Below, one piece after another: positions 37,080 to 57,676 of a stretch of 64,000 nucleotides of DNA; the first letter of the stretch is position 1, and each line of letters starts with the position of its first letter. Where the stretch lies: positions 31,097-95,096 of IMG/VR virus record IMGVR_UViG_3300047557_002467. The stretch is one strand, 5' to 3'. A program made the position numbers and the translations under genes. Below the pieces are notes generated by a model. The model saw only the letters and a program-made list of their open reading frames with translations, was not told the DNA's origin and made no database searches. This DNA comes from a virus.

Positions 37080-37400
37080 TTATTTAATACCAAACGGTTC
37101 ACCTGTAACACTGTGTACAGCTTTTCTATAAGCTTTTTGAAATTCGCTTTGGAGTACTTTCATGAGAAGGTCTTGTAGTGGTTGGTTATTTTTAAGTAGT
37201 GCTATCTTACCTTCACCTTCGTCATGGAAGAATGCACTAACCTCTACAAACATTGTATCTCTACCTTGAGAATCGTCTATTGTAAGTCTTATTGATGGTA
37301 CATCGTCATAGATGTTTGGATCATCTATAGAGTTTACTTCGTTTTCAACAACTCCTGCCAGTTCTTGGAGTCTTTTAACTTCGTTAAGTTGTTGTTTCAT
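37080..37400 (-). CDS. leader-tagged small protein (divergent QKIAG-family member)
   Basis: Starts MKQQLNEVKRLQELAGVVENE; lies between protease and scaffold; start adjusted to ATG at 37400. Confidence 0.65.
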   Translation of the reverse strand: MKQQLNEVKRLQELAGVVENEVNSIDDPNIYDDVPSIRLTIDDSQGRDTMFVEVSAFFHDEGEGKIALLKNNQPLQDLLMKVLQSEFQKAYRKAVHSVTGEPFGIK

Positions 37401-37402
37401 AG

Positions 37403-38035
37403 TTAAGGCTTTAAGCAACAAACACCTGATTGAGTGCAGATGATGTCTGAAATAAGTTTGTTAACACTGTCGTATTTGTTGTAACTAATTAATGGATTAT
37501 ATGACTCATTAATCCCTGAAATTGGTTTTACATATGCACCAAACGTTGATGGTATTGATACAAAGTCCCAACAAATTAACTCTAGGTCGTCTTCAACTTG
37601 CACAAGTCCTTCTCCAATTGGTGTTACAGAACCCATTGCACGAGATGATACGCCTACGTTAATGCCTGCCATAAACAATTGTCTTAGAATATTGCCAGAT
37701 GGAGTATCAAGAATTTCAAACTCACCATACAAATCCTTATCCTGCCACCATAGTTTGGTAATGTTATGACATACATTCTTAAGGTTTATAACAGAAGACT
37801 CAGGATGATCTAACTCTCCTAAAGCTCTTTTCTCCATAACAGGACCTTCTACATACAACTGTACCTGCTTTGCTAATACATCATAATCATAGATACGACG
37901 GTTAGCATTAGGCTTATTGGCAGCTTGTACCTTTCCTGCAACCAAAAAAGGTTTATTAGGATTGTATCTAGCCTCATTAAGCTGCTGCTGTAAAGGCTCA
38001 AAAAGCATGTGTTCTATCAGTACTTGTTTGGCCAT
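37403..38035 (-). CDS. prohead maturation protease, T4 gp21-like
   Basis: N.N.RIY, ALGELDHP, GVSSRAMGS, WDFVSIPS. Confidence 0.93.
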   Translation of the reverse strand: MAKQVLIEHMLFEPLQQQLNEARYNPNKPFLVAGKVQAANKPNANRRIYDYDVLAKQVQLYVEGPVMEKRALGELDHPESSVINLKNVCHNITKLWWQDKDLYGEFEILDTPSGNILRQLFMAGINVGVSSRAMGSVTPIGEGLVQVEDDLELICWDFVSIPSTFGAYVKPISGINESYNPLISYNKYDSVNKLISDIICTQSGVCCLKP

Positions 38036-38036
38036 A

Positions 38037-39260
38037 TTATACGTTCTTAGTTAATCCTGTTTTAGTATCAGTAACATCAACTTGCTGTCCTAACTTTTTC
38101 TCCATACTCCTAGCAGTCTGTGTTACTCTGTTTACATCTTTACCAACATCTACTGTAACACCTGTATCAGTCTTAGCAATAGCACCTTCCTTCTTAATTT
38201 TATCAATAGCTTTTACAAGCTTTGCTTTTATCTTTTCTAGTAGAGACGCTTCGTTGTCCTTTTCTTCCGTTTGAGTTAGTTTGGGATCAACACCTGTATC
38301 AGGACCTCGAACACTACCCATATTTGGAAGAGAACTAAATGTTTTTGGTGCTTCAGGATGTTGAGGAATATCTTTTTTAGTTAGAACATTTTTCTGTAAA
38401 TGATAACCATAGGTTTTATCAGGATCTTCACCTTCTCCATCTTTATTGTACTTAGCTTTCGCTGCTTCATACGCATCAGAATCCTTATCAAAAACTACAA
38501 TAGCAGTATGTGTGTCAAAGCCAATAACATTACCTACACCGTTCTCGTCATACCCTTTTAGAGATTTTTTTTTTACTCTTGAACCTATACCAATATCTTC
38601 AAATTTATCATTGTTATTAGTTAGATCTTCAAGTAAATGCTCTTTTAAAGCCATTACTTTTTCCTTACCTGGTGTTGCAAAAGCCTGTAGTTTACCTTTA
38701 GGAGTTTGAGTCATCTGAGCTACTTTCTCCTTCTTTTTAACATCCTTAGTAACGTGGTTGGCACTTGCAGGAGCATCTTTCTTAACTACTTTAAGCTCGT
38801 TTGCTTTATCTACATTGCCTACCTTCTTGTATTCTTTCATCTTGAGATTTTCATCTCTTTTCTTAATCTCATCGTAGTTAGCAATCATTAATTCTCTGTA
38901 TGCGTCAGGATCCTTAAGCATCTTAGCTACTACCTTTTTTCTAGCCTTCACATAATTTTCATCTGTGATTTCAGGCATCTTAGACAATTCGTACTTGATA
39001 GCACGGTCTGCTACATAAACATTCAAGTGATCCATACCTCTATACAAATCGTCTTCAGCGTTTGGATTATGCTTGTAAACGCCTTCTGGCTTCTTAACTT
39101 CGTTTAAGATACGTTTACCTTTCAAGATCTTTACTGAGTCATCGTACGATGTCACTGGAGATATATGTTGAGGAAACTGCATACGTATATTACGCATAAA
39201 GTTTGCTTTTGACATCTTGCCTTCTAAAAGGTCTTGGTACTGTGCTTGAATATTTTTCAT
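38037..39260 (-). CDS. hypothetical head-associated protein
   Basis: Between portal and protease; Lys/Glu-rich with multiple L-x-E sites (LLE, LNE, LKE). Confidence 0.6.
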   Translation of the reverse strand: MKNIQAQYQDLLEGKMSKANFMRNIRMQFPQHISPVTSYDDSVKILKGKRILNEVKKPEGVYKHNPNAEDDLYRGMDHLNVYVADRAIKYELSKMPEITDENYVKARKKVVAKMLKDPDAYRELMIANYDEIKKRDENLKMKEYKKVGNVDKANELKVVKKDAPASANHVTKDVKKKEKVAQMTQTPKGKLQAFATPGKEKVMALKEHLLEDLTNNNDKFEDIGIGSRVKKKSLKGYDENGVGNVIGFDTHTAIVVFDKDSDAYEAAKAKYNKDGEGEDPDKTYGYHLQKNVLTKKDIPQHPEAPKTFSSLPNMGSVRGPDTGVDPKLTQTEEKDNEASLLEKIKAKLVKAIDKIKKEGAIAKTDTGVTVDVGKDVNRVTQTARSMEKKLGQQVDVTDTKTGLTKNV

Positions 39261-39278
39261 ACTAATAAATAGTTAAAT

Positions 39279-39770
39279 TTAATCTTCGTTATCCCAACCT
39301 AAAGCTTTGCTTAAATTTGTGTAACCCTTTGCTAAATCTTTTATATTACCAACCATGTCATCTAAACCCATAACCTCCATATCAAAACTATCAAGTTCGT
39401 TTGTCAAGTCTTCAAGTTTTACTACATTATCTGGTCTTTCAAAGAAATCATATTGCTCTATTACAGAGTAGTAGTCTCCAATACTTTTTTCTGTTCTTTT
39501 TCTAATATCCTTCAAAGTGGCTTGATATTCGTCCAGCTTTTTTGGATCCTTTGATAGGTCTTTTACTGATAGATCTTCAATTTTACCTGTAATTGAGGCT
39601 ACTGTTTTTTTATTATCATCAAGTAACTTGGCAGCTTCTTTTACATACTTCTCTGCTTTTTTTTCAGGTCTATCAGAAAGAGGGTTATCGGATAGTTCAA
39701 GTTCTTCTTTAAGAAGACCTGCTATCTTTTGTAATTCGTGTACCTCTTTTATCAATACCTTTCTTTTCAT
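39279..39770 (-). CDS. QKIAG-leader family protein (helical cargo)
   Basis: Start adjusted to MKRKVLIKEVHELQKIAGLLKEELELSDNPL. Confidence 0.75.
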   Translation of the reverse strand: MKRKVLIKEVHELQKIAGLLKEELELSDNPLSDRPEKKAEKYVKEAAKLLDDNKKTVASITGKIEDLSVKDLSKDPKKLDEYQATLKDIRKRTEKSIGDYYSVIEQYDFFERPDNVVKLEDLTNELDSFDMEVMGLDDMVGNIKDLAKGYTNLSKALGWDNED

Positions 39771-39771
39771 A

Positions 39772-39903
39772 CTATCTTCCTTGTCCTCGGTAGTTCTTTT
39801 CAGATCTATCGTGTTTGTTAAATGATTTCTGAGACTTACCTTTTTTGCGTTTACCAAAGGTAACCTTTACTGATTCACCACTTTTTCCTTTTACTTTTGC
39901 CAT
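39772..39903 (-). CDS. small basic protein ending YRGQGR, 43 aa (not in ORF track)
   Basis: Manual translation MAKVKGKSGESVKVTFGKRKKGKSQKSFNKHDRSEKNYRGQGR; exactly fills the gap. Confidence 0.7.
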   Translation of the reverse strand: MAKVKGKSGESVKVTFGKRKKGKSQKSFNKHDRSEKNYRGQGR

Positions 39904-39913
39904 GACTTAAAAT

Positions 39914-40948
39914 TTAATAACGATCTTTCATTCTTCTTGTCATATAATCACTTAGATGTTCACCACCAAACACACCTTCTATTCTAGCGTTTATATCGTA
40001 TTGATCTAACCCTTTTTGAATCCATCTTTCTAATTCATTGTATAGATCTTCTTGTTCTTCAAAAAACCAATATCCTTCACGTGCATTCCACTCAGCGTGT
40101 AACTCCATATCCTCTACCATCTCTGCAATCTTTGTATTGTCTTCTGGTGTTCTACCAACGACCATTAATCCTGATCTCTGTGCTGCTTCTTTTAGTTTTG
40201 GTTTTTCTTCACCTTTCAACTTCTTAATCTTCGAATACACTTCGACTACTCTAGTATGAATTTTTTCAAATACTTTTTTAGTATTACTACTATATTCTAT
40301 TGTTTCATCACCTTCTGATAATTCTGATCTCATCTGTCTAGTGAATTCTAATAGCTTGTTAATCTCTTCTAACTTATTACTAATGATCTTAGCTGCTTCG
40401 TGCATTTGTTGAGGCTTACTTCTTAGCGCAGCTTCTTTTTTAAATTGAGAATACCTTTTAGATTCCCACAACTCTTCTACGTCAATACTTTTCAATTTCT
40501 TACCTGCTTCTGCTGCTGAGGGTGCTTTTGTAAATCCTACACTGGAGTAGCCTGATAAATTTTTTGAACCTTGCTTATTAGTCTTAGCGGGTGAACCTGC
40601 TAATCTTGGTGCATCTTCTTGGTATTGCTTTTTACGTGTTCCTGCTGCATACTGCTCTCCTGTACCGGTAGGACCTTGTGGATCCCAGCTTGCACCATCT
40701 GTTGTTCCGCCGCCTACTGTATTTCCGCCGCCTACTCCACTCGATCCTGTCATTTCATCGATTTGAGGATTTTCTATAATTTGAATAGCTGTCTCGAGAG
40801 TAATAATACCTTCTATAACAGCATTAGTCATAATCCTAATTAAATCTACATCAGTAGCTCCGGCATCTTGTAGAGCAGACTGTACTATGTTTTTCAGTTC
40901 TGAGGTATCCTCCAATAAAAACTGTGTAGCGAATTGATTATTCATCAC
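39914..40948 (-). CDS. hypothetical multi-module head-associated protein
   Basis: Segments separated by LLE, IDE, LWE, LKE sites; downstream of portal. Confidence 0.6.
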   Translation of the reverse strand: MMNNQFATQFLLEDTSELKNIVQSALQDAGATDVDLIRIMTNAVIEGIITLETAIQIIENPQIDEMTGSSGVGGGNTVGGGTTDGASWDPQGPTGTGEQYAAGTRKKQYQEDAPRLAGSPAKTNKQGSKNLSGYSSVGFTKAPSAAEAGKKLKSIDVEELWESKRYSQFKKEAALRSKPQQMHEAAKIISNKLEEINKLLEFTRQMRSELSEGDETIEYSSNTKKVFEKIHTRVVEVYSKIKKLKGEEKPKLKEAAQRSGLMVVGRTPEDNTKIAEMVEDMELHAEWNAREGYWFFEEQEDLYNELERWIQKGLDQYDINARIEGVFGGEHLSDYMTRRMKDRY

Positions 40949-41796
40949 TTTATGTCTTTTAATTCGCTTATTAATTGATAGTATTGCATTAGACCTATAA
41001 CAACTTCATCTCTAATTGGATCGTTTGCACCAATTGGTTTAATGAAGTTTAGTACTTCGTTGAGTTTAATCTTAAGTACTTGATCTTTTGTATTAGTTTT
41101 TATATCCACTATTTCAGACTTAACTTCTAAAAGCTTAGTGTTAAGATATGCTTTAAGATTTTTTGTATCTGAAACGTTGTTGATATACTCTTTTAACAAG
41201 TCCTTTTGCTCTGCTGATAAAACAGAATACTTGTCATTAAACTTTTCAATTAATATTTTGTGAGCTAGGAATCTAATTTCTTTATCTTCCTTCATAAACT
41301 CTTCTACAACCTTAGAAGCAACCTTACGCTCTGTTAAAGTTTCCTTAGTTACATGCTCAAGAAGAGTAAGTTTATTTGTAATGATTTGCTTAGTATCGGC
41401 CGGATTCTTAGTTGATTTAGATTCAATCAATGTATAGATTGATGCTGAGATTCTATAGTTATCGATCTTAGCTTTAAAAAAATCATCTAAATCGTAGTGT
41501 TTTTTGATCTCCTTAATAAGGTTATACTTCTCTTTATCGAGTTTAGTTCTATCTAAATGAGTAGCTTGCTCTGCAACAGTATTTATCAAAACTTCAGCCT
41601 TAGATTCACTTAATTTAGGTGCGTTGATTACCGTATTATACAAATTATATTCTTTACCAAGCTCAGTGTTGATAAAGTATTTTTTGAATATTTTAGCAGC
41701 TCTCGGATCCTTATTTGTCATAAGGTCTGAAGTAGCTTGTCTTACCAGCAATTCAAAAAGAATACCGGTATTTTTGTATTTGCTATGTTTAATCAT
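40945..41796 (-). CDS. hypothetical protein immediately downstream of portal
   Basis: 283-aa helical ORF starting MIKHSKYKNTGILFELLVRQ; own TATTTAT motif at 41814-41821. Confidence 0.7.
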   Translation of the reverse strand: MIKHSKYKNTGILFELLVRQATSDLMTNKDPRAAKIFKKYFINTELGKEYNLYNTVINAPKLSESKAEVLINTVAEQATHLDRTKLDKEKYNLIKEIKKHYDLDDFFKAKIDNYRISASIYTLIESKSTKNPADTKQIITNKLTLLEHVTKETLTERKVASKVVEEFMKEDKEIRFLAHKILIEKFNDKYSVLSAEQKDLLKEYINNVSDTKNLKAYLNTKLLEVKSEIVDIKTNTKDQVLKIKLNEVLNFIKPIGANDPIRDEVVIGLMQYYQLISELKDIK

Positions 41797-41828
41797 TACA
41801 GTTTGCCTTAATTATAAATATCTGTTTA

Positions 41829-43769
41829 TCACAATAAATCCGGCTTAATTTGGTTTTCATTAAGCAAGTCACTCTCTTTGTAGAGGTTTACTCTTCTACT
41901 CCATGCTTCGAGTGCTGTTTTATTCTTTAGATAAGCAGCTTTTGTTATTGCATTTTCCTTCAAACTCAACGGATTACCACCTTTATACTTTACTTTTAAG
42001 TTATCTTCTGCTGTGGTTGGTTTAGATTTTAGATCATAAACACCCATCCTATCACGTCCTAACGGATCGTCAGATGTGTTAATAAGAGATACTTTGTCTT
42101 GTGGTCTACCAGGAAGTTTAACAGGTTCAGAAGGATTGATTTCATCGTATCCTTGAGGTACTTCATTACCTGCTAGATTAGTGTTACCATACCCACCGTA
42201 CATTGAAGCAATTTGGTGTGGTGTACCGTATGCCTGACCGCTTTCTGCTGGATCGTTACCTTCTTCTTCAATCTGTTTCATACGGAACATTCTCTTCTTA
42301 TCCTCAACAACCAAGTCACGATACTCGTCAAATTCCTCTTCAGAGAAGTGGAACAATTTATCGTAAATCCAGTCAGTAGGCAAGAAGCTTGTTTCCATCA
42401 TCTGTGCTGCTAGATCCATCTTCTCTTTCATCAATGCTACCCTCTCCTGCTCGTAAATGATAGATGGAGTTGTGAGCATTAGATCGAAATTGGTTAATGA
42501 CTCATCGTCATAGCCATGGGCATAAAGGTGAACAAGAGCAATCTTAGTAAGTTCAGATAGTACAATACGTTGTATTCTCTCGATAGTACGAGCAAATCGA
42601 ATGTCCTCAGCAGCAAGTGTTGCCTTACCTGTAAGATCTTTTTCATACCCTAAAAATGCTTTTGGAATTTTAAGTGCCGCAAACAATTTGTTAAGTAAGT
42701 AGTTAACGTCTTCAATACCGTTATACTCCAGTGGTGGTGCATTATCAATCCTTGTTGACTGATCATTTCCTCTTACAGGAATGAAAAAGTCTTCAAGCAT
42801 ATTCTGCACATTATAATTAAGATTATACTGTCCTGTTTTACCGTCAACAAGAGGAGTTTTCTTCATCTTGCTGATCATTCTTTGCATGTAGTTTTCTACT
42901 TCATTTGGAGGAATGGCACCTACATTCACATAGAAAATTCTACGTTGAGGAGCACGTGTTATACGATGAATTAACATCGCATCTTCCATCAACACATACT
43001 GCTTATACAACCTTCTACCTGGCTCTAAATAAGAACGTCCGTAGGGTAGGTAGTTCATATCACCAATCAATCTTAGGTGAGCCATTTCGTAATTGTAGAA
43101 AGTAATACCTAAGTCTGTGTTTTGGTATGAAGTAGAGTAACCTGCTGTTGCACCAAGTGCAGCTGTTGGATCGTACTTGAATATAACCTCAGATGGATTA
43201 CTTGGATTAGTACCTTCAAGCCTAACAATGTTGTATGCTGAGAAAGGAATCACATTGTAAACACCAAACTTCTCTGCTATTTCTAGCTTCAAGAAGAAAT
43301 CTCCGTACTTACACATATTCCTAATCCAGAACCATAGGTTAAATTCTATGTTTAGGATATCATAGAAAAGACTGTAAAGGATTTTTTGGATGTTTTCATC
43401 AGCAGATCTAATCTGTAACACTTCACCTTGAGTGTTTTTCAGTGTGCATTCGTCTGCAATAATATCCAAAGCAGAAGCAACAATCGGATCTGTGTCCATT
43501 GCTTCGTAGTCTGCGTAGATTTGTACGCGCATACTTTGGTAGTTCTGCGCTAAATTTAGGTTTACACCATAAGAAGTTGACGTGGTGTATATACGATTAA
43601 ACCTATCTACAAGTGCATTCGTCTGCAGAACACCATTAACCTGTATGTTCTCAACGTCTACGGTCTTTAATTCTCCTCCGTCATTACGAATAATAACATC
43701 GGTAGAAAATAACCTTTTTAACGCTGAAAATAGGTTATTACGGGGTTGTTGAATTTGTTCTTCTGCCAT
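41829..43769 (-). CDS. portal protein, T4 gp20-like
   Basis: SYLEP.RR..KQ..LMEDAMLIHRITRAP.RRIFYVNVG.IP, MLEDFFIPVRG, YL..KLFAALKIP, EDIRFAR.I.RIQ. Confidence 0.95.
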   Translation of the reverse strand: MAEEQIQQPRNNLFSALKRLFSTDVIIRNDGGELKTVDVENIQVNGVLQTNALVDRFNRIYTTSTSYGVNLNLAQNYQSMRVQIYADYEAMDTDPIVASALDIIADECTLKNTQGEVLQIRSADENIQKILYSLFYDILNIEFNLWFWIRNMCKYGDFFLKLEIAEKFGVYNVIPFSAYNIVRLEGTNPSNPSEVIFKYDPTAALGATAGYSTSYQNTDLGITFYNYEMAHLRLIGDMNYLPYGRSYLEPGRRLYKQYVLMEDAMLIHRITRAPQRRIFYVNVGAIPPNEVENYMQRMISKMKKTPLVDGKTGQYNLNYNVQNMLEDFFIPVRGNDQSTRIDNAPPLEYNGIEDVNYLLNKLFAALKIPKAFLGYEKDLTGKATLAAEDIRFARTIERIQRIVLSELTKIALVHLYAHGYDDESLTNFDLMLTTPSIIYEQERVALMKEKMDLAAQMMETSFLPTDWIYDKLFHFSEEEFDEYRDLVVEDKKRMFRMKQIEEEGNDPAESGQAYGTPHQIASMYGGYGNTNLAGNEVPQGYDEINPSEPVKLPGRPQDKVSLINTSDDPLGRDRMGVYDLKSKPTTAEDNLKVKYKGGNPLSLKENAITKAAYLKNKTALEAWSRRVNLYKESDLLNENQIKPDLL

Positions 43770-43787
43770 ATATGTAATAAATATCTT

Positions 43788-45377
43788 TTATCCAAGAAGC
43801 CAGCTAATATCATCTACTTGATTGTTACCAGTTGATATTTGCCATGGATTGTTGGTGCCAGTTTGGCGTCCGTTATAAATTTCGTAACTCTGATTTGAAT
43901 TACTAAAGTTCTTGAGACTTGCATACGTTAGATCCATAGCTGTTTGCCTGAATCTAATTGCTGTATCTCTCAAAAAGAGTGCTATATTGAAAGACATTAC
44001 AAGGTCGTCATTATATCCGTGTAAAGCTTGTGCTTTTCCGTTCTTCCAAATGAACACTCTATACTCGTCTAAGAGTCTTTGTGAACGTATAATAACAGTT
44101 TTCTCTTCGATAAATGATCTTGCTTTTTCAATTACAAGAGGTCTTGTTCTCTGGTTCATACTAAAGCCAGCAACCATTCCGTCACCCTTATCAAATCTCT
44201 CAACATAAAGATCAATTTGAGTACCTACAATCTCGGATTTTGGAGAGTAATACAAGTTGTGATAGCCACTCTCTTGTATAGATGTTACTACATCCCATCC
44301 AATACTTGCATTTTCAATTACAAGCAAAGCATTGTTCCATTCAATTGCAGTTGCTAAAAGTTTACGACCAAAATCTTTAGTTGAAATTTGATCTTTAAAC
44401 TCTGCTACTTGCATTAAGTTGTCTACATCTATGACATGGAAAGTAGAAAAGTCCATACCATCACCTCTAGCTACGTCTGCTACAACCATATAAGTTTTAA
44501 GAGGATCTGGATATTCAAACAACCAATACACACCACCCATATCTCTTCTTTCTAAAGGTTCTCTTACAGTTTCAACTTGGTAGTAATTTAGTACATCAGG
44601 TTCAATAACAGTGTTACCTGAAGTTGAAAAGTCACAATCACACTCCTGTGCAGCTGCTCTAGGACCTAACTGAGCTGTCTGTTCATCTCTCCACTCTTGT
44701 GTTCTCTCAGGATGTACTGTCCAAGGTAATGCTATTGGAGTAAATTTATTCTCTCCAATTTGAGCTCTTGAGAATTCTCTGTGAAACCAGTTACCTACAC
44801 CGTTTGGAGTAGAGATAGCAATACATCTACCACCAGTAGCAAGTGTTTGTTGTGCTGCTGTGAAGATCTCTTCTATTCTTTCAATGAAAGCTGCCTCATC
44901 TATTACTAGCAAAGATACTGCTTCAGAACGTGCTGAGTCAGTTGCTGCTGATACTGCTTTGATTTGAGAACCATTTTTTAGTCTTAGACTCAATCTGTTG
45001 TGTTCCATTACAGGCAACTTCATCCAGTTAGGTAGATTGTCGTATGCAAACCTAACCTTAGTTACCATGTTCTTAGCTGTTGCTTGTGTGGTAGCAAGTA
45101 CAAGGATGTTTTTATCTCTTTCAAAGAGCATCATCCACAATGAAAATGCAGAAGTCAACGTTGATAAACCAAGCTGTCTTGACTTGTTAATTATAGAATA
45201 ATCGTGCTTTTGAAGTAGTTTGAGTATCTTCTCTTGAAACGGATACAAATTAAACATCATTCTACCTTTTGTAGGATGTTGTATCGTATAATACTTCTTC
45301 ATAAAGTAAACAGGATCCTGCTTACATTTAATTAATTCTTGCTTTATTGCATCACTTATTGCTGCTTGTGTAGCCAT
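43788..45377 (-). CDS. terminase large subunit, T4 gp17-like
   Basis: LYPFQ, KSRQLGLST, VIDEAAF, STPNG, ADVARG.G.D, G.NDDLVM. Confidence 0.95.
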   Translation of the reverse strand: MATQAAISDAIKQELIKCKQDPVYFMKKYYTIQHPTKGRMMFNLYPFQEKILKLLQKHDYSIINKSRQLGLSTLTSAFSLWMMLFERDKNILVLATTQATAKNMVTKVRFAYDNLPNWMKLPVMEHNRLSLRLKNGSQIKAVSAATDSARSEAVSLLVIDEAAFIERIEEIFTAAQQTLATGGRCIAISTPNGVGNWFHREFSRAQIGENKFTPIALPWTVHPERTQEWRDEQTAQLGPRAAAQECDCDFSTSGNTVIEPDVLNYYQVETVREPLERRDMGGVYWLFEYPDPLKTYMVVADVARGDGMDFSTFHVIDVDNLMQVAEFKDQISTKDFGRKLLATAIEWNNALLVIENASIGWDVVTSIQESGYHNLYYSPKSEIVGTQIDLYVERFDKGDGMVAGFSMNQRTRPLVIEKARSFIEEKTVIIRSQRLLDEYRVFIWKNGKAQALHGYNDDLVMSFNIALFLRDTAIRFRQTAMDLTYASLKNFSNSNQSYEIYNGRQTGTNNPWQISTGNNQVDDISWLLG

Positions 45378-45820
45378 TAGATTTCTTCGTTACCTTCTTC
45401 ATCTCCAAGTGAAACTTGAGGATAAAACTTCTTTTCTAAACTCTTAATCTTCTTAATTATATTACCGTAATTAACGTCGTGATAAACCTTCTCTTTGTAA
45501 TCTTCTATTGATATAAGGTTTTGTTTATATTGTTGAATGAGGGTTTTTAAGTAAGCTTTCAATTTATCTAGTTCCCTTTCTTCTTCACCGCTAATATCTT
45601 CACCTCTATCAACTGGTTCCTCAGGTTGTACTGGTTGTTGCTCAAAGTCTTCGCTGTCATCTGGATCGGGTTTATTCCAACTATCTTCAGTATCATCTAT
45701 ATCAGCATCTTCAAAATCGTCGTTTGCAAGCTGTGGTTCGAGTATGTCATCCTCCTCTCTCATGTAAGATTGAAGAGTAAGTTTGTTCTCCATTAGATAC
45801 TTTTGAATATTGAATTCCAT
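45377..45820 (-). CDS. acidic hypothetical protein
   Basis: 147 aa, very D/E-rich, N-terminus FNIQKYLMENKLT. Confidence 0.65.
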   Translation of the reverse strand: MEFNIQKYLMENKLTLQSYMREEDDILEPQLANDDFEDADIDDTEDSWNKPDPDDSEDFEQQPVQPEEPVDRGEDISGEEERELDKLKAYLKTLIQQYKQNLISIEDYKEKVYHDVNYGNIIKKIKSLEKKFYPQVSLGDEEGNEEI

Positions 45821-45850
45821 ACTACTTGTTTAGTAATAAATAGTTTCTAT

Positions 45851-46099
45851 TTACATATCGAATTGGAAAGCGTCAGCTATAGGCATTGCTTTGTGTTGAT
45901 TTACAAGCTCTTGCCACCTGTCTTTCTTGTACTTGATTCCGTAAATGTAGTATTCAGATGCTGTTTCTTCGCTTTCAGGATAGATTAAAGCAGGACCTGT
46001 GAGTGAGTGTATTTTTCCGTTGCCTGGTCCGTATAAAACGTATGAAATAGTTTTACCACAAGTAGTTCTCATGGTCTTGGTTTCAAAGGAAGTTCTCAT
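45851..46099 (-). CDS. small protein with a single G-K-x-H-x-x-x-G-P-A motif
   Basis: GKIHSLTGPALIYP...EYYIYG resembles the LHR.DGPA repeat unit common in viral proteins. Confidence 0.65.
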   Translation of the reverse strand: MRTSFETKTMRTTCGKTISYVLYGPGNGKIHSLTGPALIYPESEETASEYYIYGIKYKKDRWQELVNQHKAMPIADAFQFDM

Positions 46100-46114
46100 C
46101 GTATTGGTTTTGTA

Positions 46115-46145
46115 AGAAGTTACAAAACTTTAATCACATTTCCAA
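46115..46145 (-). promoter_or_regulatory. Bacteroidota-type promoter-like site overlapped by 9-bp inverted repeat
   Basis: TTG-N20-TAACTTCT; GTTTTGTAA-gaag-TTACAAAAC at 46107-46128. Confidence 0.55.
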
Positions 46146-46146
46146 C

Positions 46147-46899
46147 TTAATCTTCGTCGTCAACTAAAAGTTCTTTGATACGATTTATCATTTCCTCATT
46201 ATCGTAGTCTACATCCAATAACTCACCAGCAATTAATTCGACTAAAAAATCTGTGTTTTCTGTAGGTAAACCTATTTCTTGTTGTATTGTAATTAGAAGA
46301 TTGTATAAATCTGTAAGAGGTCTTTCGTCTTCCTCATCTCTTCTCCTCTTTTTAAAAATTCTAATAAGTTGACTCTTGTACTTATCTACTACATAATCAA
46401 TATTCTTTTTTCTCTCTGGACCGAGTGGATTGAAGGATAGATCGAGATCTTCAGTTAATTTAATTGCTCTTTCTATACTCTTTATTCTATTGTTTTTTAA
46501 CTTTTTTAAAGCTTCTACAAACCTTATAAAGTAGTCTATGAAGTCATCAGCTGTATTATATTTTTCAGGCTCTGCTTCGAATTTAGATAATATAGCATCC
46601 CATATTTGATCAAACTTTTGTAAGTCTTCTTCCTCTTCGTAGAAACCATCAATCCATTCCCCAAAATCACCTACCCATCCTAATAGACTCCCTTCATGTC
46701 TATATAATTCTTCTTCACCATCAGCTTGCACTTTAGAAATATGACCTGCAGCATCTGCAATAAAATTAATAAGAGGAGCTATATCTAAAGTATCTCCTCC
46801 TGATAAAGGATTGCTAGAGAAATCTAAATCATCTTCTTTCAAAAGACCTGCTATCTTTTGTAGTTGTCGTACTTCGTTGATGTTTGCTTTCTTTTTCAT
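46147..46899 (-). CDS. QKIAG-leader family protein, two acidic cargo modules
   Basis: Start adjusted to MKKKANINEVRQLQKIAGLLKEDDLDFSSNPL; internal IKLTEDLDLSFNPL. Confidence 0.8.
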   Translation of the reverse strand: MKKKANINEVRQLQKIAGLLKEDDLDFSSNPLSGGDTLDIAPLINFIADAAGHISKVQADGEEELYRHEGSLLGWVGDFGEWIDGFYEEEEDLQKFDQIWDAILSKFEAEPEKYNTADDFIDYFIRFVEALKKLKNNRIKSIERAIKLTEDLDLSFNPLGPERKKNIDYVVDKYKSQLIRIFKKRRRDEEDERPLTDLYNLLITIQQEIGLPTENTDFLVELIAGELLDVDYDNEEMINRIKELLVDDED

Positions 46900-46903
46900 A
46901 TTG

Positions 46904-47407
46904 CTAGTCTTCTTCGTCTTCATCATCTGATCCTTGTTCGTAATACTCTGCTTTACCTTCCATAAACAAGTCGTAAATATCGTCGCTCAATCCAGGTACC
47001 AATTCGTCTAGTTGATTTTTGGATTCTAGATAGGTTCTTTCTTCGCCGTCTTCTACATAGCCTGCTCCAAGAATGTGTACGTCAGCAACATCTCCGTCGA
47101 ATTCCCCATCGTAAAAATAATCGTCGTAGGTTCTCCAACCTGATTCCAAAACATCCACATAAGTGTTTACTGCTCTCATTAATCTAGGACTACCACCTTT
47201 ATCTAATACTTGAGATTTAACTAAAGCATCTAACTTTGCTAAATATTCATCGCTTAAAAAAATATCAGTATTTGCAAAAGGATACTTAGTTAAATGCTTG
47301 TCAGATTTAGTGCGTAGTGGATTGTCACTAAAATCAAGATTATCCTCCTTGAGAAGACCTGCTATTTTCTGTAGTTGTTTAATCTCGTTTATAAATTTTT
47401 TTTTCAT
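46904..47407 (-). CDS. QKIAG-leader family protein (acidic cargo)
   Basis: MKKKFINEIKQLQKIAGLLKEDNLDFSDNPL. Confidence 0.8.
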   Translation of the reverse strand: MKKKFINEIKQLQKIAGLLKEDNLDFSDNPLRTKSDKHLTKYPFANTDIFLSDEYLAKLDALVKSQVLDKGGSPRLMRAVNTYVDVLESGWRTYDDYFYDGEFDGDVADVHILGAGYVEDGEERTYLESKNQLDELVPGLSDDIYDLFMEGKAEYYEQGSDDEDEED

Positions 47408-47850
47408 CGTTGTAAACCCTCAGCTAATTTATCAAAAAAATTAACATAATCTCTTGCTGATTTAAAGCTCTCGTCGTTTTTGTTTATCTTTTCCATTATT
47501 ATATCGTACCAAATATATTCGAATTCATCCATCTCTTCTTCTGTTTCAAAGTAGTCACCACTATCTTCTCCAAAATCAGAAATATGTCCAGACAATATAC
47601 CTGGGGTATCATAAGGTTCGTCTAAGTTTTTTTCTGTTGATGCTATATAACCTGATACAATCTCACATACTTCTGCCAAACTATTTTTAATTTTCTGATC
47701 CCTGTTTTGTATTTCACTTACAACTTCCTTAACTAGTTTTTCTATATTTCCTAATTTTAATGGATTGTCACCTAAATCAAATTCATCTTCCCTTAAAAGA
47801 CCTGCGATCTTCTGTAGTTTTTGAACTTCGTATAGATAGTTTTTGTTCAT
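47404..47850 (-). CDS. QKIAG-leader family protein (acidic cargo, paralog of 48300-48995)
   Basis: Start adjusted to MNKNYLYEVQKLQKIAGLLREDEFDLGDNPL. Confidence 0.8.
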   Translation of the reverse strand: MNKNYLYEVQKLQKIAGLLREDEFDLGDNPLKLGNIEKLVKEVVSEIQNRDQKIKNSLAEVCEIVSGYIASTEKNLDEPYDTPGILSGHISDFGEDSGDYFETEEEMDEFEYIWYDIIMEKINKNDESFKSARDYVNFFDKLAEGLQR

Positions 47851-47860
47851 AATTACTAAC

Positions 47861-48283
47861 TCAATACCCATCAATACTCTCTACATATTCTTCAGGAAAC
47901 CAACCTTCGTGTCCACCTTTTCTATTTCGTATTCCATACCAAATACCATTTTTATGTTTAGATACATAGTCATTTACCCAATCTTCAAATAAATCATATC
48001 CGTAATCTTCAGCAGCTTCTTCATTGTTAAACAATTGATCCCAATCACTAAGATCACCACCCCTTTTAACTGCTTCATCATAGTTTTTAGCTACTTGATC
48101 AACATATCCAAACATAGGTGGTTCACCTTCAAATCTAAAAGCTACTTCATCCCCTTTTTTAAATTTCCCTTTTGAGTAGTTTGGAATTAGAGGATTCATG
48201 TTAGTATCTAAGTCATCTTCTTTCAAAAGACCGGCAATTTTCTGAAGCTGTTTCACTTCTTTAAGTAGAGATTTTTTTTTCAT
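47861..48283 (-). CDS. QKIAG-leader family protein (SH3-like cargo)
   Basis: MKKKSLLKEVKQLQKIAGLLKEDD; FKKGDEV...WYG....GGHEGWFPEEYV. Confidence 0.8.
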   Translation of the reverse strand: MKKKSLLKEVKQLQKIAGLLKEDDLDTNMNPLIPNYSKGKFKKGDEVAFRFEGEPPMFGYVDQVAKNYDEAVKRGGDLSDWDQLFNNEEAAEDYGYDLFEDWVNDYVSKHKNGIWYGIRNRKGGHEGWFPEEYVESIDGY

Positions 48284-48299
48284 TTTTTATCTTTAAAAT

Positions 48300-48995
48300 T
48301 TAATATCCTTCGTACTTATCTAAATCACTTAATTCTACAAAAGCATCTGGGTCTGAGCTGTCTTCTAAATCAAGAAAGAAATCTTCAACGTCAGTTGTTC
48401 CTGCATTTTTCATCTCTTCTTTATAAATGTTTACGAGTTTTTTTATTTCTTCTGGTGTTGGGTCAGAATCTTCGTAATAATATTTTACTTTTTCTTCGAT
48501 TTCTTTTTCAATTTTATTAAAAGGGTCGTCTTTCGATTGAATATCATCATCTGATTTTCTTATTGTTTTAGCTAAAGTGTCAAAATAATTAATATAATCT
48601 CTTGTAGTTTTAAATAGTTTTTTATTGTTTACAACACTTGTTAGTATTAGACCAAACCAATTGTTATTAAATTCGTAATTTTCTTCATCAGAAAAAGAAT
48701 CATCGTAGTCACTACTAAAATCCTCTATGTAATCTGTTAAAAAACCTGGTGTATTTAAAGGTTCGTCTAAATTTTTAAAAATTCTACTTAAATAGGTTGA
48801 AACCTTTCCGAGAAATTTAATTAGTTTAATCCTAAATTGATCATCTTCAATTTGTAAATTGTTAGCAGTTGTACTTACTAATTTATCAAAATTCACAGCT
48901 TGAAATGGATTATCATCCAAATCTAAATCTTCTTTTAGAAGACCAGCAATCTTCTGTAATTGTCTTACTTCGTTAATTAAGGATTTCTTTTTCAT
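48300..48995 (-). CDS. QKIAG-leader family protein (acidic cargo)
   Basis: MKKKSLINEVRQLQKIAGLLKEDLDLDDNPF. Confidence 0.8.
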   Translation of the reverse strand: MKKKSLINEVRQLQKIAGLLKEDLDLDDNPFQAVNFDKLVSTTANNLQIEDDQFRIKLIKFLGKVSTYLSRIFKNLDEPLNTPGFLTDYIEDFSSDYDDSFSDEENYEFNNNWFGLILTSVVNNKKLFKTTRDYINYFDTLAKTIRKSDDDIQSKDDPFNKIEKEIEEKVKYYYEDSDPTPEEIKKLVNIYKEEMKNAGTTDVEDFFLDLEDSSDPDAFVELSDLDKYEGY

Positions 48996-48997
48996 AA

Positions 48998-49489
48998 TTA
49001 TGATTCTGTTTCTTCTGCTGCTGCTACTTCTGGTGACGTTTCTTCAGGTGCTTCCTCTGGCTCTCCTGCTGATGATGTTTGCTCTTCTCCTTCAGGTCCT
49101 TTTGTTTGAATTGGATTACCCATTGCTAGAAGCCTTGCAATAGCGTTAATACATCTTTCTCTTTCGCCAATTGTTTGAAGATAGAACTTCTTACCAGCTA
49201 CAGTAGCTTCATAAGCCTTACCCATAAACGTCAAAAGGAAGTCTTGATCGTTATGCAACACGCATTTGAAAGTTGTTGGCTTTGGTGCTACAATATAGAT
49301 ACCTGTAAGATAATCTTTATACGCATCAGACATTAGCATTGAAAGTGTCTTATCTAGTGTTGGATACTTACCTAATATGAATGCTATAGGATTATCTTCA
49401 AAAGATTGAACTTTTGCTTCCATCTTCTCAACTTCATTGAGAATTAGTCTTCTTACTATGTCTTTTTTTGTCATATTAATTGTATTCAT
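48998..49489 (-). CDS. hypothetical protein with acidic tail
   Basis: 163-aa ORF, N-terminal IVRRLILNE; true start may be the second Met. Confidence 0.65.
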   Translation of the reverse strand: MNTINMTKKDIVRRLILNEVEKMEAKVQSFEDNPIAFILGKYPTLDKTLSMLMSDAYKDYLTGIYIVAPKPTTFKCVLHNDQDFLLTFMGKAYEATVAGKKFYLQTIGERERCINAIARLLAMGNPIQTKGPEGEEQTSSAGEPEEAPEETSPEVAAAEETES

Positions 49490-49865
49490 TTGGTTGAAGT
49501 TGGTCTTCCGGGAACCAGCCTCTGATTTGTCCTTGATTATTCTTTACTTGGTACCAAACACCTTGTTTTAATTCTTGAAATCTTCTAGGATCCATTGAAA
49601 AACCATAGTCCCAATAAAACCAATCACCGTTAGGATCTTTTCTTTTTGCTTCATCGTAGTTTTTTGCTACATCCTCTATAACATAAAATTCAGCTTCCTC
49701 ATTTCCTTGATAACTAAAAGTATGTACTACCTCATCTCCAATTGTAAATTCGCCATATCTTGATTTTGTACTAAGAGGATTGGTTGACAAATCAAAATCA
49801 TCCTCCCTCAAAAGACCCGCTATCTTTTGTAGTTGTTTAACTTCGTTTATGTATCTTTTTTTCAC
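49476..49865 (-). CDS. QKIAG-leader family protein (SH3-like cargo)
   Basis: GTG start; KKRYINEVKQLQKIAGLLREDDFDLSTNPL; WYQVKN...RGWFPED. Confidence 0.8.
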   Translation of the reverse strand: MKKRYINEVKQLQKIAGLLREDDFDLSTNPLSTKSRYGEFTIGDEVVHTFSYQGNEEAEFYVIEDVAKNYDEAKRKDPNGDWFYWDYGFSMDPRRFQELKQGVWYQVKNNQGQIRGWFPEDQLQPNEYN

Positions 49866-49877
49866 TATTATTCAATC

Positions 49878-50282
49878 TTACTTATACCATACAATAAATG
49901 GTCCGTATTGCTTAAGATACATATCAAAGAATTTTTTACCTCTTCTATATTCTTGTGGTGGAAGAAAACTCCATTTTATTTTTATGTTGTTTTCTTTGTT
50001 CACTTCTCCAATTTCACTATCCATAAGTTCATCGTAAGAATTAAAAACTTTTTTAGTATAACCATTAGACGGATCATCTAATTTTGCAATAATTTCATCT
50101 ACATTGTCCCAATATGGTCTATCCTTTTGATCATGTATCCTGTCTTCTTCTGTAAATTTTCCCCAGAAATCGCTTAAATTAATACTTTCTGAGTCAGCTT
50201 CAGGTTTAAACTCATATTCATTCAAAAGACCAGCGATTTTCTGTAGTTGTCTTACTTCGTTGATTAGTTTTTTGTTTTTCAT
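49878..50282 (-). CDS. QKIAG-leader family protein
   Basis: MKNKKLINEVRQLQKIAGLLNE; lacks the DLSDNP extension. Confidence 0.8.
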   Translation of the reverse strand: MKNKKLINEVRQLQKIAGLLNEYEFKPEADSESINLSDFWGKFTEEDRIHDQKDRPYWDNVDEIIAKLDDPSNGYTKKVFNSYDELMDSEIGEVNKENNIKIKWSFLPPQEYRRGKKFFDMYLKQYGPFIVWYK

Positions 50283-50288
50283 ATTTTT

Positions 50289-50888
50289 TTAAGCTAATAA
50301 TGAATAATACTCTTTAAAATGTTTTAGTCTATCTGCAAGTCCGATAGTACCACCGTTTACTCTTTTTGTAACTTCTGTTACTACTGCATCAGTTGCACCT
50401 TTATCTGCAATCTTATGTAGACCGTTCTTGTGAAAGAACCAAGCAGCTGACATAAGTGGGTACTTTGTTGCTACAAGATCAGGATTTTCTAAAATGTTTT
50501 CTGTAACAACAGCGTCAAACGCTTTGTAGTTATCTTTACCTGTAAGTTGAATGTAACCACGACCGCGGAATTTAAAACCTTCACCGCTTGTTTCAGGACC
50601 GTTACCCATTCTACTTCCGTATACTAAGTTAGCAATTTTTTCAGGCTTTCTTTCGTATAGCTTAGCTTTTTCTTCTGTAGGAAAATATTTTTTGAAAATA
50701 CTCAATAATCCCTTTGCACCATAATTCAAGTTCTCGTTCACAGCCTTAAATCCACCTGACTCATGTCCTGCTTGAGCAAGAAAATGTGCAAGACGAAGTG
50801 GAGTATTGATTTCAAACTTAGTCTGTATGTCAGGGATCTGAGCAATTACTGAATCCGGAATGTGTCCTTTTAATTTTTGTAGGTTCAT
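50289..50888 (-). CDS. GH19 chitinase-like endolysin/muramidase
   Basis: AHFLAQ..HES, ENLNY, FRGRGYIQLTGKDNY, SAAWFF, T.RVNGG..GL.DR. Confidence 0.92.
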   Translation of the reverse strand: MNLQKLKGHIPDSVIAQIPDIQTKFEINTPLRLAHFLAQAGHESGGFKAVNENLNYGAKGLLSIFKKYFPTEEKAKLYERKPEKIANLVYGSRMGNGPETSGEGFKFRGRGYIQLTGKDNYKAFDAVVTENILENPDLVATKYPLMSAAWFFHKNGLHKIADKGATDAVVTEVTKRVNGGTIGLADRLKHFKEYYSLLA

Positions 50889-50890
50889 AT

Positions 50891-51112
50891 CTATTTAAAA
50901 TTTGGGTGTACTGGAATCACTTTTTCTAAATTCTGTTTCTCTTGTTCAGAGAACTCGTAACCCATTGTATTTTTAACACTTCTTGTTGCAAAATCTACTG
51001 CTTCTTTAGGATCATAACCTCTCTTAGATAAACTATATGCAATTTCAAGAGCATCTTTCATTGCTCTTCTTTTGTTTTGCACTTCTTGTAATATGTTGTT
51101 TAGTTTAATCAT
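50891..51112 (-). CDS. small protein with MIKL-type leader
   Basis: MIKLNNILQE start. Confidence 0.65.
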   Translation of the reverse strand: MIKLNNILQEVQNKRRAMKDALEIAYSLSKRGYDPKEAVDFATRSVKNTMGYEFSEQEKQNLEKVIPVHPNFK

Positions 51113-51810
51113 GCTCTAAGAGAATTTAACCATGCATACATTTCAGCTTCATACTCTGCGTTGTATTCTATATTTGGAATTTCACCATGAAAAAATCCTT
51201 CTACTTTACCCATGTCTATTACTTTTTTCACAGTTAATCCTCTTTTTAATGGATAAATGTCTATTTCCATAGAATCACCTACTACTTCTCCTTTAGAATC
51301 CAACATGTAGCATCTCCCTTCAAAATCTCCAAATCCAATAGAATCTCCAAATGTATAAGGAACGACCCCCGTTTTATCATTTCTTACTAATTGAAAAGTA
51401 TTACTGTTAGTTATATCATCAAATGAAACATCTCTTCTTGCAAGTGGGTTATCACTCAAATCTAAATCTTCTTTTTCGTTAATACGATTTTTTACTCTTT
51501 TCTTTACTTCTGGATATATTACATTTTCCATTGTATGATCGAACTTTTCGAATCCTATAGAAGTTTCTAATTCTCTAAGTGCATCATATATCTCACTTGC
51601 TTGAAAGTCCAATTGACCTTCATACCACCAATCAAAGTCACCATCGTAATTTTGTATGCAATCCTCTACCATCAAATCTACTATCTTATTCACTAATCTC
51701 TTTTTCCTCAAAGCACTAAAAGGATTATCGCTTAAATCAAAATCATCCTCTTTCAAAAGACCTGCTATCTTTTTTAGTTGGCGTACTTCGTTTATGTTTA
51801 TCTGTTTCAC
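51109..51810 (-). CDS. QKIAG-leader family protein, two cargo modules
   Basis: GTG start KQININEVRQLKKIAGLLKEDDFDLSDNPF; internal RINEKEDLDLSDNPL. Confidence 0.8.
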   Translation of the reverse strand: MKQININEVRQLKKIAGLLKEDDFDLSDNPFSALRKKRLVNKIVDLMVEDCIQNYDGDFDWWYEGQLDFQASEIYDALRELETSIGFEKFDHTMENVIYPEVKKRVKNRINEKEDLDLSDNPLARRDVSFDDITNSNTFQLVRNDKTGVVPYTFGDSIGFGDFEGRCYMLDSKGEVVGDSMEIDIYPLKRGLTVKKVIDMGKVEGFFHGEIPNIEYNAEYEAEMYAWLNSLRA

Positions 51811-51831
51811 TATAGTACTATAAAAAACTAA

Positions 51832-52254
51832 TTATTGCCAGATCCAATAAGTATGAGAGTCTTCTATTCCTATTGCAAGTTTAAATTCGTAGCCGTCTAA
51901 TTCTTCATTATCACCACCATACTCTTCAGGAGACCTAAAATCAGAAGGAAATTCATAGCTCATAAAAAACTTTCCTTCATCTTCTTGTCTATTTAATGTT
52001 ACCTCTTTTTGTATTCTCTTTGCAACATCAATTGCTCTTAGTACTAATGGTGGTTTTTCCCTACCAAAATGGGTATATTCGACCACACAATCCTTGTTCA
52101 AATCTATACCAGCTTCTCTAAATTTGGTAAGCACTTCTTTTTGAACAGCTAAAGGATTATTAGAAAGATCTAAACCCAAGTTTTCTTCTTCTTTCAGAAG
52201 ACCAGCAATTCTCTGTAGTTGTCTTACTTCGTTAATTAGTTTCTTGTTTTTCAT
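51832..52254 (-). CDS. QKIAG-leader family protein
   Basis: MKNKKLINEVRQLQRIAGLLKEEENLGLDLSNNPL. Confidence 0.8.
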   Translation of the reverse strand: MKNKKLINEVRQLQRIAGLLKEEENLGLDLSNNPLAVQKEVLTKFREAGIDLNKDCVVEYTHFGREKPPLVLRAIDVAKRIQKEVTLNRQEDEGKFFMSYEFPSDFRSPEEYGGDNEELDGYEFKLAIGIEDSHTYWIWQ

Positions 52255-52260
52255 AATATC

Positions 52261-52731
52261 TTACTTACGTTTAACGTTTTTCCACATTGCAGCTGCTGCT
52301 ATCTTCTGACCTTTCTTACCACCTCCTGCTTCTTTTGCTACATCTTCAAATCCTTTACCCTTCTTTCCAATATCTCCACCTGCTTTAGCTTTCTTAACTA
52401 CGTCTGACTTTTGTTTTTTAGTAAGACCTGCAGAAGGTTTTTTCTTCTTTGCTTCGTACATAGCGTATCCAGGACCAGCTTCTTCTTCTCTGCTAGACTC
52501 ACCACCTAAATACTCAGCTACTGAATGCATGTAGTCTGCTGCAAGACTAATATAAGCTGATACCCAACCTGGTAGATTGTCGCTCTCACCAACCATGCTA
52601 TCTATCTTAGAAGCATTGGATATCATGTCTCTAAGTTCGTTTTTGGCCATGCTAGACTCGTGATCATGACCATGATTCCAATCACGTCCACATTCGTTGC
52701 ATTTTCCTAGTAATTCAGATAGCTTTATCAT
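52261..52731 (-). CDS. MIKL-leader protein with acidic helical module and Lys-rich C-terminal module
   Basis: MIKLSELL; HDHESSMAK..L...LPGWVSAYI; basic tail after MYE. Confidence 0.7.
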   Translation of the reverse strand: MIKLSELLGKCNECGRDWNHGHDHESSMAKNELRDMISNASKIDSMVGESDNLPGWVSAYISLAADYMHSVAEYLGGESSREEEAGPGYAMYEAKKKKPSAGLTKKQKSDVVKKAKAGGDIGKKGKGFEDVAKEAGGGKKGQKIAAAAMWKNVKRK

Positions 52732-52764
52732 TTTTTATAATTTGCTCTTAGTTATAAATAGTGT

Positions 52765-53760: not shown

Positions 53761-54005
53761 TACTTACCTGATTTAAGTCTTTTTGCTATCTGATCTATTT
53801 TTTCTTTTTCGCTTTCACTCATCTTAGCTCTGGGCTGTTTGTATGGAGAAACTTTAGGATTACCAATACCTGGTTCTTTTTTAGGTTGAGGTGTTGGTTT
53901 AGTTTGCGGTTTAGTAGCAGGCTTAGTTTTAGGCTTGACTTCTGGTTCTGCTATTTCGTTTTCTACTAACTTTTGGATCAATCTTCTAACAAAAAGGTTT
54001 TTCAT
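53760..54005 (-). CDS. small Pro/Lys-rich protein
   Basis: KPKTKPATKPQTKPTP repeats after an LVENE site. Confidence 0.65.
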   Translation of the reverse strand: MKNLFVRRLIQKLVENEIAEPEVKPKTKPATKPQTKPTPQPKKEPGIGNPKVSPYKQPRAKMSESEKEKIDQIAKRLKSGK

Positions 54006-54006
54006 A

Positions 54007-55212: not shown

Positions 55213-55366
55213 CTTCCTGCTTGTTTATTCTTTTAGCAGAATCAACTGCTTTTTTATAAGCTTTCGTACCTTTCTTGGCAGGTTTTTCACCTCGAGCTCT
55301 TTTAGCTCTAATGTTGTGCCATAGTCCTTTTGACTCTTCCTTTAGTAAGTCTGCTATTTTAATCAT
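55199..55366 (-). CDS. small basic protein with MIKIADLLKE leader, 55 aa (not in ORF track)
   Basis: Manual translation MIKIADLLKEESKGLWHNIRAKRARGEKPAKKGTKAYKKAVDSAKRINKQEDESK. Confidence 0.7.
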   Translation of the reverse strand: MIKIADLLKEESKGLWHNIRAKRARGEKPAKKGTKAYKKAVDSAKRINKQEDESK

Positions 55367-57083: not shown

Positions 57084-57087
57084 AATA

Positions 57088-57672: not shown

Positions 57673-57676
57673 AACA

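Follow-up and report, generated by a model that had tools for sequence, protein, structure and literature searches.

Our analyses concern eleven genes that open with the same short N-terminal leader in the viral record IMGVR_UViG_3300047557_002467 of IMG/VR (95,096 bp; CheckV completeness 57%), of which bases 31097–95096, a stretch of 64,000 nucleotides that is referred to below as the window, were analysed; positions are those of the window. The leader comprises 22 residues with the consensus MKKxx(L/I)NEV(R/K)QLQKIAG(L/I)LKE and begins minus-strand genes that start at 37400, 39770, 46899, 47407, 47850, 48283, 48995, 49865, 50282, 51810, and 52254, by which positions the genes are named here. 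A first-pass annotation of the same DNA had listed these eleven genes, and they have been confirmed both by reading of the sequence and by a hidden Markov model (HMM) of the leader, which, run over all six reading frames of the entire 95,096-bp record, matched these eleven (domain E 2e-13 to 6e-22) and found no twelfth copy. The start codon is GTG for the 49865 and 51810 genes and ATG for the remaining nine. The continuation DxD(L/F)SDNP(L/F), described at first pass for most of the leaders, is indeed clear in nine of the eleven in the form D-x-D-L-S-D-N-P-(L/F); the 50282 gene lacks this extension and the 37400 gene is divergent. A second, internal copy of the DLDLSxNPL part is present in the 46899 and 51810 genes (weak HMM match).

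Two of the leader genes occupy fixed places in the head module across the clade. The 37400 gene (37080–37400, minus strand, as are all the window features given below; 106 amino acids, aa) carries the divergent leader MKQQLNEVKRLQELAGVVENE (HMM E 2e-13) and is a conserved core member located directly downstream of the protease gene, between protease and scaffold; its orthologues include P0054, P0093, P0095, and P0120 (P numbers denote metagenomic proteins, and L numbers viral loci or contigs, that were compared), and its position is kept in L016, L019, L021, and L027. The 39770 gene (39279–39770; 163 aa) lies between portal and protease, and a gene of its type has kept this position in L011, L013, L016, L019, L025, and L027; the cargo of its protein, by which we mean the part behind the leader, is a helical bundle with no function in an Atlas look-up.

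The other nine genes form an array with more varied contents. The 46899 gene (46147–46899; 250 aa) encodes two cargo modules, one of family A followed by a second module, which are separated by an internal L-T-E / DLDLSFNPL junction (46423–46461); the second module is found placed directly after a leader in P0035. Next to it lie the 47407 gene (46904–47407; 167 aa), whose cargo is a singleton within this genome, the 47850 gene (47404–47850; 148 aa; family A), the 48283 gene (47861–48283; 140 aa; family B, an SH3/Tudor-like barrel with a helical insertion), and the 48995 gene (48300–48995; 231 aa), in which a family A module is joined to a C-terminal module, all of it helical. The array continues with the 49865 gene (49476–49865; 129 aa; family B), the 50282 gene (49878–50282; 134 aa), the 51810 gene (51109–51810; 233 aa), whose two cargo modules meet at an I-N-E-K-E / DLDLSDNPL junction (51442–51483) that is also a rearrangement breakpoint relative to L011, and the 52254 gene (51832–52254; 140 aa), with cargo homologous to a widespread metagenomic cargo module. 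The cargos of the 46899, 47850, and 48995 genes (family A) and those of the 48283 and 49865 genes (family B) are paralogues (blastp E 3e-7 to 4e-20). Also within the array is a conserved 163-aa gene (48998–49489), with a start reading ...RRLILNEVEKMEAKVQSFEDNPIAF, which shows ~80% identity in relatives and 43% in immuto; it keeps LNEV and EDNP(I/L) without the QKIAGLLKE core, and may be a degenerate or ancestral member of the leader family.

The leader genes flank the terminase, portal, protease, and scaffold genes, as had been noted before, and a GH19 lysin gene (50289–50888; Pfam E 3.5e-8) is also embedded in their array. The head module consists of a T4-type major capsid protein (MCP) of the Gp23 family (34023–35720; Pfam E 6e-77), for which alignment with the T4 gp23 site predicts a propeptide cut at QLVME/QSS (the slash marking the cut), an acidic scaffold protein (35753–36946), assigned by position and by homologues in the phages immuto, Mel-JY01, and RM378, a prohead protease of the T4 gp21 family (Peptidase_S77; 37403–38035; Pfam E 7e-25), which is the presumed processing enzyme and whose motifs GELDHP and GVSSR match GELNHP and GVSSR of T4 gp21, a T4-type portal (Portal_T4; 41829–43769; Pfam E 8e-69), and the large terminase TerL (43788–45377; Pfam). 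Every gene between 34 and 55 kb is on the minus strand, and the leader genes, which are spaced by 0–47 nt or overlap, form an unbroken run into the terminase and portal genes, so that leader genes, lysin, terminase, portal, protease, scaffold, and MCP make up one co-directional block. A terminator scan of this block gave no enrichment over shuffles, and scans for sigma-70 promoters and for the Bacteroidota -7 motif returned nothing above shuffles. Because the gene run is tight and unbroken and no terminator signal is found, the layout indicates that the leader genes are likely co-transcribed with the late genes. The G+C content is ~35%, and the best DNA match in a sequencing-run search was a freshwater metagenome, perhaps the sample from which the record came. 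No DNA-level match for the window was found among phage records; the closest cultured relative is Flavobacterium phage immuto (57.5% MCP identity), with Microcystis phage Mel-JY01 and Rhodothermus phage RM378 further off.

The leader is widely distributed and is sharply bounded. IMG/VR held 34 further loci with 1–7 leader copies each, and the search of relatives for a constant tag ahead of variable cargo, which had been suggested at first pass, bore out that expectation: of 1.84 billion cluster representatives searched with the profile, 826 were leader carriers at 50% identity clustering (E ≤0.001), and 73 blast-independent groups of cargo were distinguished among carriers. In 147 of the 150 best carriers the tag begins at residue 1–6, and no Pfam domain or name was found among the carriers. 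The information content in 228 sequences is 3–4.3 bits at each of positions 7–22, 1.9 at position 23, and 0.6 at position 24, and this collapse of conservation after E22 indicates that the module ends exactly after L-K-E. Two glutamates are near invariant, viz. E9 (224/227) and E22 (223/228). The L-K-E at 20–22 is a hydrophobic-x-Glu motif (h-x-E), of the kind cut by T4 gp21; the (L/I)-N-E at 7–9 is likewise h-x-E, and the leader of immuto gp187 ends in I-T-E. Where residues are identical in the leaders, third-position identity is 0.61, and Ala is encoded by 4 codons, Ile by 3, and Leu by up to 6; since synonymous sites vary while the residues are fixed, the conservation is at the protein level and it is the peptide that is selected. 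In some proteins the whole leader is repeated internally, and in others it lies at residues 72–95 or at the extreme C-terminus. P0037, P0047, P0051, and P0092 have one leader at the N-terminus and another, NINEVRRLQKIAFKK, at the very end of the protein, which is a scaffold-like arrangement. Such internal and C-terminal positions are more in keeping with a docking helix than with a signal peptide. When 50,697 phage records were searched with the leader by tblastn, there were chance matches only (E ≥2), and a full-text literature search for the motif strings found no paper that contains the leader motif.

The proposed cleavage site can be compared with that of the capsid protein. The T4 gp23 site FLTE65/A aligns with QLVME/Q in the window, QIVSE/A in immuto, HLME/T in RM378, and QLISE/A in Mel-JY01; from this aligned MCP cleavage column, together with the shared gp21 motifs GELxHP and GVSSR, it is a reasonable inference that the h-x-E specificity of the protease is conserved in the clade. 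In multi-module proteins, including P0007, a three-module chain, an h-x-E followed by a DLDLSDNP(L/F) junction precedes each downstream module, as exemplified by YINEEEDFDLSTNPL, IINNIEEDLDLSDNPL, KLTEDLDLSFNPL, and RINEKEDLDLSDNPL. An h-x-E stands 0–5 residues upstream of internal DLSxNP junctions in 16 of 17 cases by eye and in 11 of 17 by a stricter regular expression. A likeness of D-x-x-x-N-P to viral 2A skipping sequences was considered and dropped, the G-P being missing and 2A requiring eukaryotic ribosomes.

Cargo that resides inside a prohead with an active h-x-E protease should shun that motif. When one representative of each of the 73 cargo groups was compared with residue shuffles, [LIV]-x-E was found to be depleted (114 observed vs 143.8 expected), with 53 groups below expectation and 19 above (sign test p 8e-5), whereas the control motif [LIV]-x-D was enriched (190 vs 149.8 expected). 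Elsewhere in this phage h-x-E is 1.66-fold enriched in head-module proteins and 1.18-fold in other open reading frames (ORFs), and it is neutral (0.93) in other acidic ORFs.

The cargos had been called mostly unrelated at first pass, a description that is only in part correct: the set is modular, and within the window families A and B are paralogous. Cargo modules recur singly or chained in metagenomic proteins, and one extra protein was added by a word-based search for homologues of the family A cargo. The acidity ascribed to the cargos was found in all eleven of the window, with an isoelectric point (pI) of 4.1–4.8 for the part after residue 22; across the carriers the median pI is 4.24 and 88% lie below 5 (n = 222), the median for other ORFs of this phage being 5.5. 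As the acidity is so general across unrelated folds, it points to a constraint of the loading or delivery system rather than to shared DNA mimicry dictated by each target. A role of the cargos as DNA-mimic or anti-defence effectors, which had also been proposed, is unproven, acidity being the one feature that speaks for it.

AlphaFold2 (AF2) models were examined for two proteins, 48995 and 48283, and both consist of a leader helix (within residues 3–21), a disordered linker (~18–36), and a confidently predicted globular cargo. In the 48283 model the helix spans 4–18, the disordered part 18–36, and the cargo has a predicted local distance difference test score of ~90; in the 48995 model the helix spans 3–21, with disorder at 18–34 and 149–159. 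Fold searches of both models (PDB by Foldseek, BFVD, and VIA-wide) gave no significant match and no DNA-mimic or anti-defence fold; family B showed a generic SH3/Tudor-like resemblance only (best E 0.03), and the family A search returned background helical-bundle matches (Z ≤8.6) with no fold match. Pfam and PHROGs searches of ten leader proteins (the 52254 gene excluded) gave nothing above threshold, the sub-threshold matches being SH3 and DUF7553 only.

The cargos are exchanged at the leaders and junctions. The locus L011 has a TerL 99% identical to that of the window, yet its cargo set is different, and 5 of the 6 rearrangement breakpoints between the two fall within leader or junction sequence; among them is a deletion by which the second 51810 module is placed behind the 52254 leader. 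At L011:3045–3700 (plus strand) a module akin to the first one of the 51810 gene is followed, in an in-frame fusion, by the 49865 cargo, the product being the two-cargo protein P0004, joined by YINEEEDFDLSTNPL. When ten loci were compared, similarity blocks ended at leaders and junctions four times as often as expected (79 vs 19.6), an excess that is in part the simple consequence of an unchanging tag with variable cargo behind it. Individual loci have from 1 to 7 leader genes between lysin and terminase, the array of the window being the largest. The Gly-Leu of I-A-G-L is encoded by GGTCTT in all ten canonical leaders (39714–52203), with variation in the neighbouring codons; this hexamer was considered as a DNA signal and rejected, other codons being used in relatives and GGT and CTT being the preferred codons here.

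The leader also resembles the end of the scaffold protein. The scaffold C-terminal motif FVTRWQQLAGIR (35756–35791) resembles the leader core VRQLQKIAGLL, and the scaffold C-termini TRWQQLAGIR (window), SRWQKLAGIIK (immuto), ERMKKLAGIVK (Mel-JY01), and ERIKRLAGL (RM378) share a pattern, +xxQ/K-x-LAG-I/L, that is conserved from RM378 to this clade; T4 gp22 is without a LAGI-type end. Within the 96-ORF proteome the pattern h-Q-x-h-A-G-h occurs in the leaders and the scaffold end only (0.12 expected), and the sole match of the leader HMM in the 190-kb Mel-JY01 genome was the scaffold C-terminus, although weakly (E 0.11). The single leader-like gene of immuto, gp187, reading RRMQKLAGIITE, closely matches the scaffold end RWQKLAGIIK of that phage.

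The leader is probably a capsid-targeting, protease-removed address for folded acidic cargo, a judgement that we hold with moderate confidence. What can be read from the sequences is the tag with its sharp boundary, the junctions, the families to which protease and capsid protein belong, the avoidance of h-x-E, and the cassette exchange at leaders; from these we infer that the proteins are docked, cleaved, retained in the head, and injected, as well as any role that they may have as effectors. The leader would be a capsid-targeting propeptide of a new sequence type, viz. an amphipathic helix, basic in character and notched by small residues (I-A-G-L), through which the protein would dock in the prohead core during assembly, probably at the same site as the scaffold C-terminal ...WQQLAGI helix. 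After shell assembly the S77 protease would cut after h-x-E, at L-K-E22 and possibly at (L/I)-N-E9, as well as at the (I/L)-N-E before each DLDLSDNP(L/F) junction of the multi-module proteins. The released modules, folded, acidic, and of 10–25 kDa, would be too large to exit the shell and would stay in the head, most likely to be delivered with the DNA. The portable, gp21-cleaved packaging tag envisaged in the first-pass annotation thus draws support from sequence features, viz. the boundary after L-K-E, the MCP cleavage column, the repeated junctions, the h-x-E avoidance, and the cassette exchange.

Several observations weigh against this interpretation. Among the cultured phages of the phage collection the leader was found in none, apart from one weak copy in immuto, and the sequencing-run search listed no RNA run. 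On distant contigs leader genes adjoin Cpn60/GroEL, family A DNA polymerase, and RecA-like genes (L036:964–2595, L041:6544–8172, L041:1569–3884, and L033:7175–8257); Gp23 or S77 gave no match on five distant contigs carrying the leader, a result that is uninformative as these fragments are only 10–20% complete. For the eleven window cargos taken alone the avoidance of h-x-E is not significant (24 vs 30.7, z -1.5). The likeness of leader to scaffold end is suggestive, extending over ~10 residues and being statistically weak, and the point on scaffold mimicry is further weakened in that the scaffold end of the window itself goes unmatched by the leader HMM. The acidity of the cargo is the opposite of the basic, DNA-associated internal proteins of T4 and suits core proteins that are expelled at least equally well.

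This last point bears on an account in which the leader targets the prohead but its carriers are auxiliary, scaffold-like proteins of the prohead core, with a role in assembly only, that are afterwards degraded or expelled without delivery of any effector. The uniform acidity resembles that of the scaffold and of T4 gp67 and gp22 fragments, two members are conserved within the head module, and some carriers have the motif at both ends as in a scaffold. The AF2 cargos are, however, confident globular folds rather than extended coils, their avoidance of the protease motif argues for survival in the head and not for degradation, and hypervariability of the array between phages with 99% identical terminase would be unusual for assembly factors; we consider this account unlikely. 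It is quite improbable that the carriers are non-virion accessory or host-takeover proteins, in which the N-terminal helix would be an uncleaved adaptor to a host or phage hub, or an oligomerisation element, unrelated to the capsid. Accessory and anti-defence genes are typically small, acidic, and quick to evolve, with a location in variable regions, and the carriers on distant contigs lie among replication and chaperonin genes; but such a role leaves unexplained the near-invariant Glu at the module boundary, the h-x-E ahead of internal junctions, the depletion of h-x-E with enrichment of h-x-D, the conserved members among portal, protease, and scaffold, and the likeness to the scaffold C-terminus.

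The breakpoints at leaders and junctions in the comparison with L011, the block ends enriched there in ten loci, and the invariance of GGTCTT in the ten leaders of this genome would also be accounted for if the repeat were mainly a DNA-level recombination or regulatory cassette, like the PeSL regulatory cassettes of T4-type phages, with its coding incidental. We regard this as very improbable, given that synonymous sites are diverse while residues are fixed, that GGTCTT is not conserved in relatives, that the peptide is conserved in 826 clusters, and that block ends at leaders are expected from a constant tag with variable cargo.

The predicted packaging system can be compared with several known systems. 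In T-even phages, diverse internal proteins (IPs) that share only a capsid targeting sequence (CTS) are cut by gp21 and encoded in polymorphic loci (PMC3012670, PMC5694885, PMC2839356). The leader is like the CTS of T4 IPI, IPII, IPIII, and Alt in being a short N-terminal tag on otherwise different proteins that ends in hydrophobic-x-Glu, and the present phage has in common with T4 a protease of the gp21 family, a capsid protein of the gp23 family, and an acidic scaffold. The leader genes, as the T-even IP loci, lie in variable loci with cassette exchange, and their array surrounds the GH19 lysin gene much as ipII and ipIII of T4 stand directly beside the lysozyme gene e (T4 locus L048:3417–4998), an adjacency that may be coincidence or may reflect a shared late-expression context. 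The differences are considerable. Only the MK start and the h-x-E end are shared with the T4 tag MKTYQEFIAE (ipII/ipIII record), a tag of 10 residues as opposed to the 22 found here, which are often followed by a DLDLSDNP(L/F) linker; IPII and IPIII are basic (pI 9.6–9.7), whereas here the cargo is acidic (pI ~4.2) and the tag basic; multi-module polyproteins with repeated junctions, and eleven genes in one genome, are unlike T4; and the tag resembles the scaffold C-terminus, unlike the case of T4 gp22. The T4 system is established, whereas the leader system is predicted from sequence.

The giant phages phiKZ, 201phi2-1, and SPN3US have inner-head and ejection proteins that are cut by a gp21-related protease (PMC5694885). 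These too comprise many paralogous proteins with an N-terminal propeptide and an x-x-Glu site, in numbers that vary between relatives, their location inside the head being shown there and predicted here (PMC5694885). Their propeptides are mostly >100 residues long with the motif A/S/G-x-E (PMC5694885), unlike the uniform 22-residue tag described here, in which P3 is L, I, or V. This uniform tag also invites a comparison with scaffold ends. Scaffolding proteins, e.g., gp8 of P22, have a C-terminal coat-binding helix. The leader would similarly be a terminal amphipathic helix that serves as an address for the procapsid interior, and the scaffold end ...WQQLAGI resembles the leader core; capsid binding in this clade is, however, a prediction, and the similarity covers ~10 residues.

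If the packaging interpretation is correct, the leader is a sequence tag that identifies virion-packaged and probably injected proteins across a clade of uncultured freshwater phages, which amount to no fewer than 826 protein clusters, with ~70 or more cargo families that are unrelated to one another and have no known domain. The CTS principle of T4 would then extend beyond the T-even phages, with scaffold-end mimicry, polyprotein junctions, and an acidity rule combined with protease-motif avoidance as additions to it, and foreign proteins could be loaded into the T4-type capsids of Bacteroidota phages by means of the leader as a naturally occurring, portable tag. A more far-reaching proposal, which we advance tentatively and with some doubt, is that the leader mimics the scaffold docking helix and hence is a position-independent prohead address, that together with the junction cassette it loads and releases strings of protease-proof acidic modules, and that the cargo families form a reservoir of proteins injected by freshwater Bacteroidota-type phages. 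The divergent copy gp187 in the cultured Flavobacterium phage immuto makes the prediction directly testable.

Two further observations concern the surroundings of the leader genes. Directly upstream of the TerL start, and overlapping it, is a gene for a very acidic protein of 147 aa (45377–45820) without a Pfam match, located at the usual position of a small terminase. Several gene starts at 50891–59559, including that at 55360 (minus strand), read MIK(L/I)xxLLKE or similar, and may represent a second class of leader, as was suggested at first pass; one such sequence, MIKIADLLKEE, is the top non-leader match of the leader profile (E 0.49).

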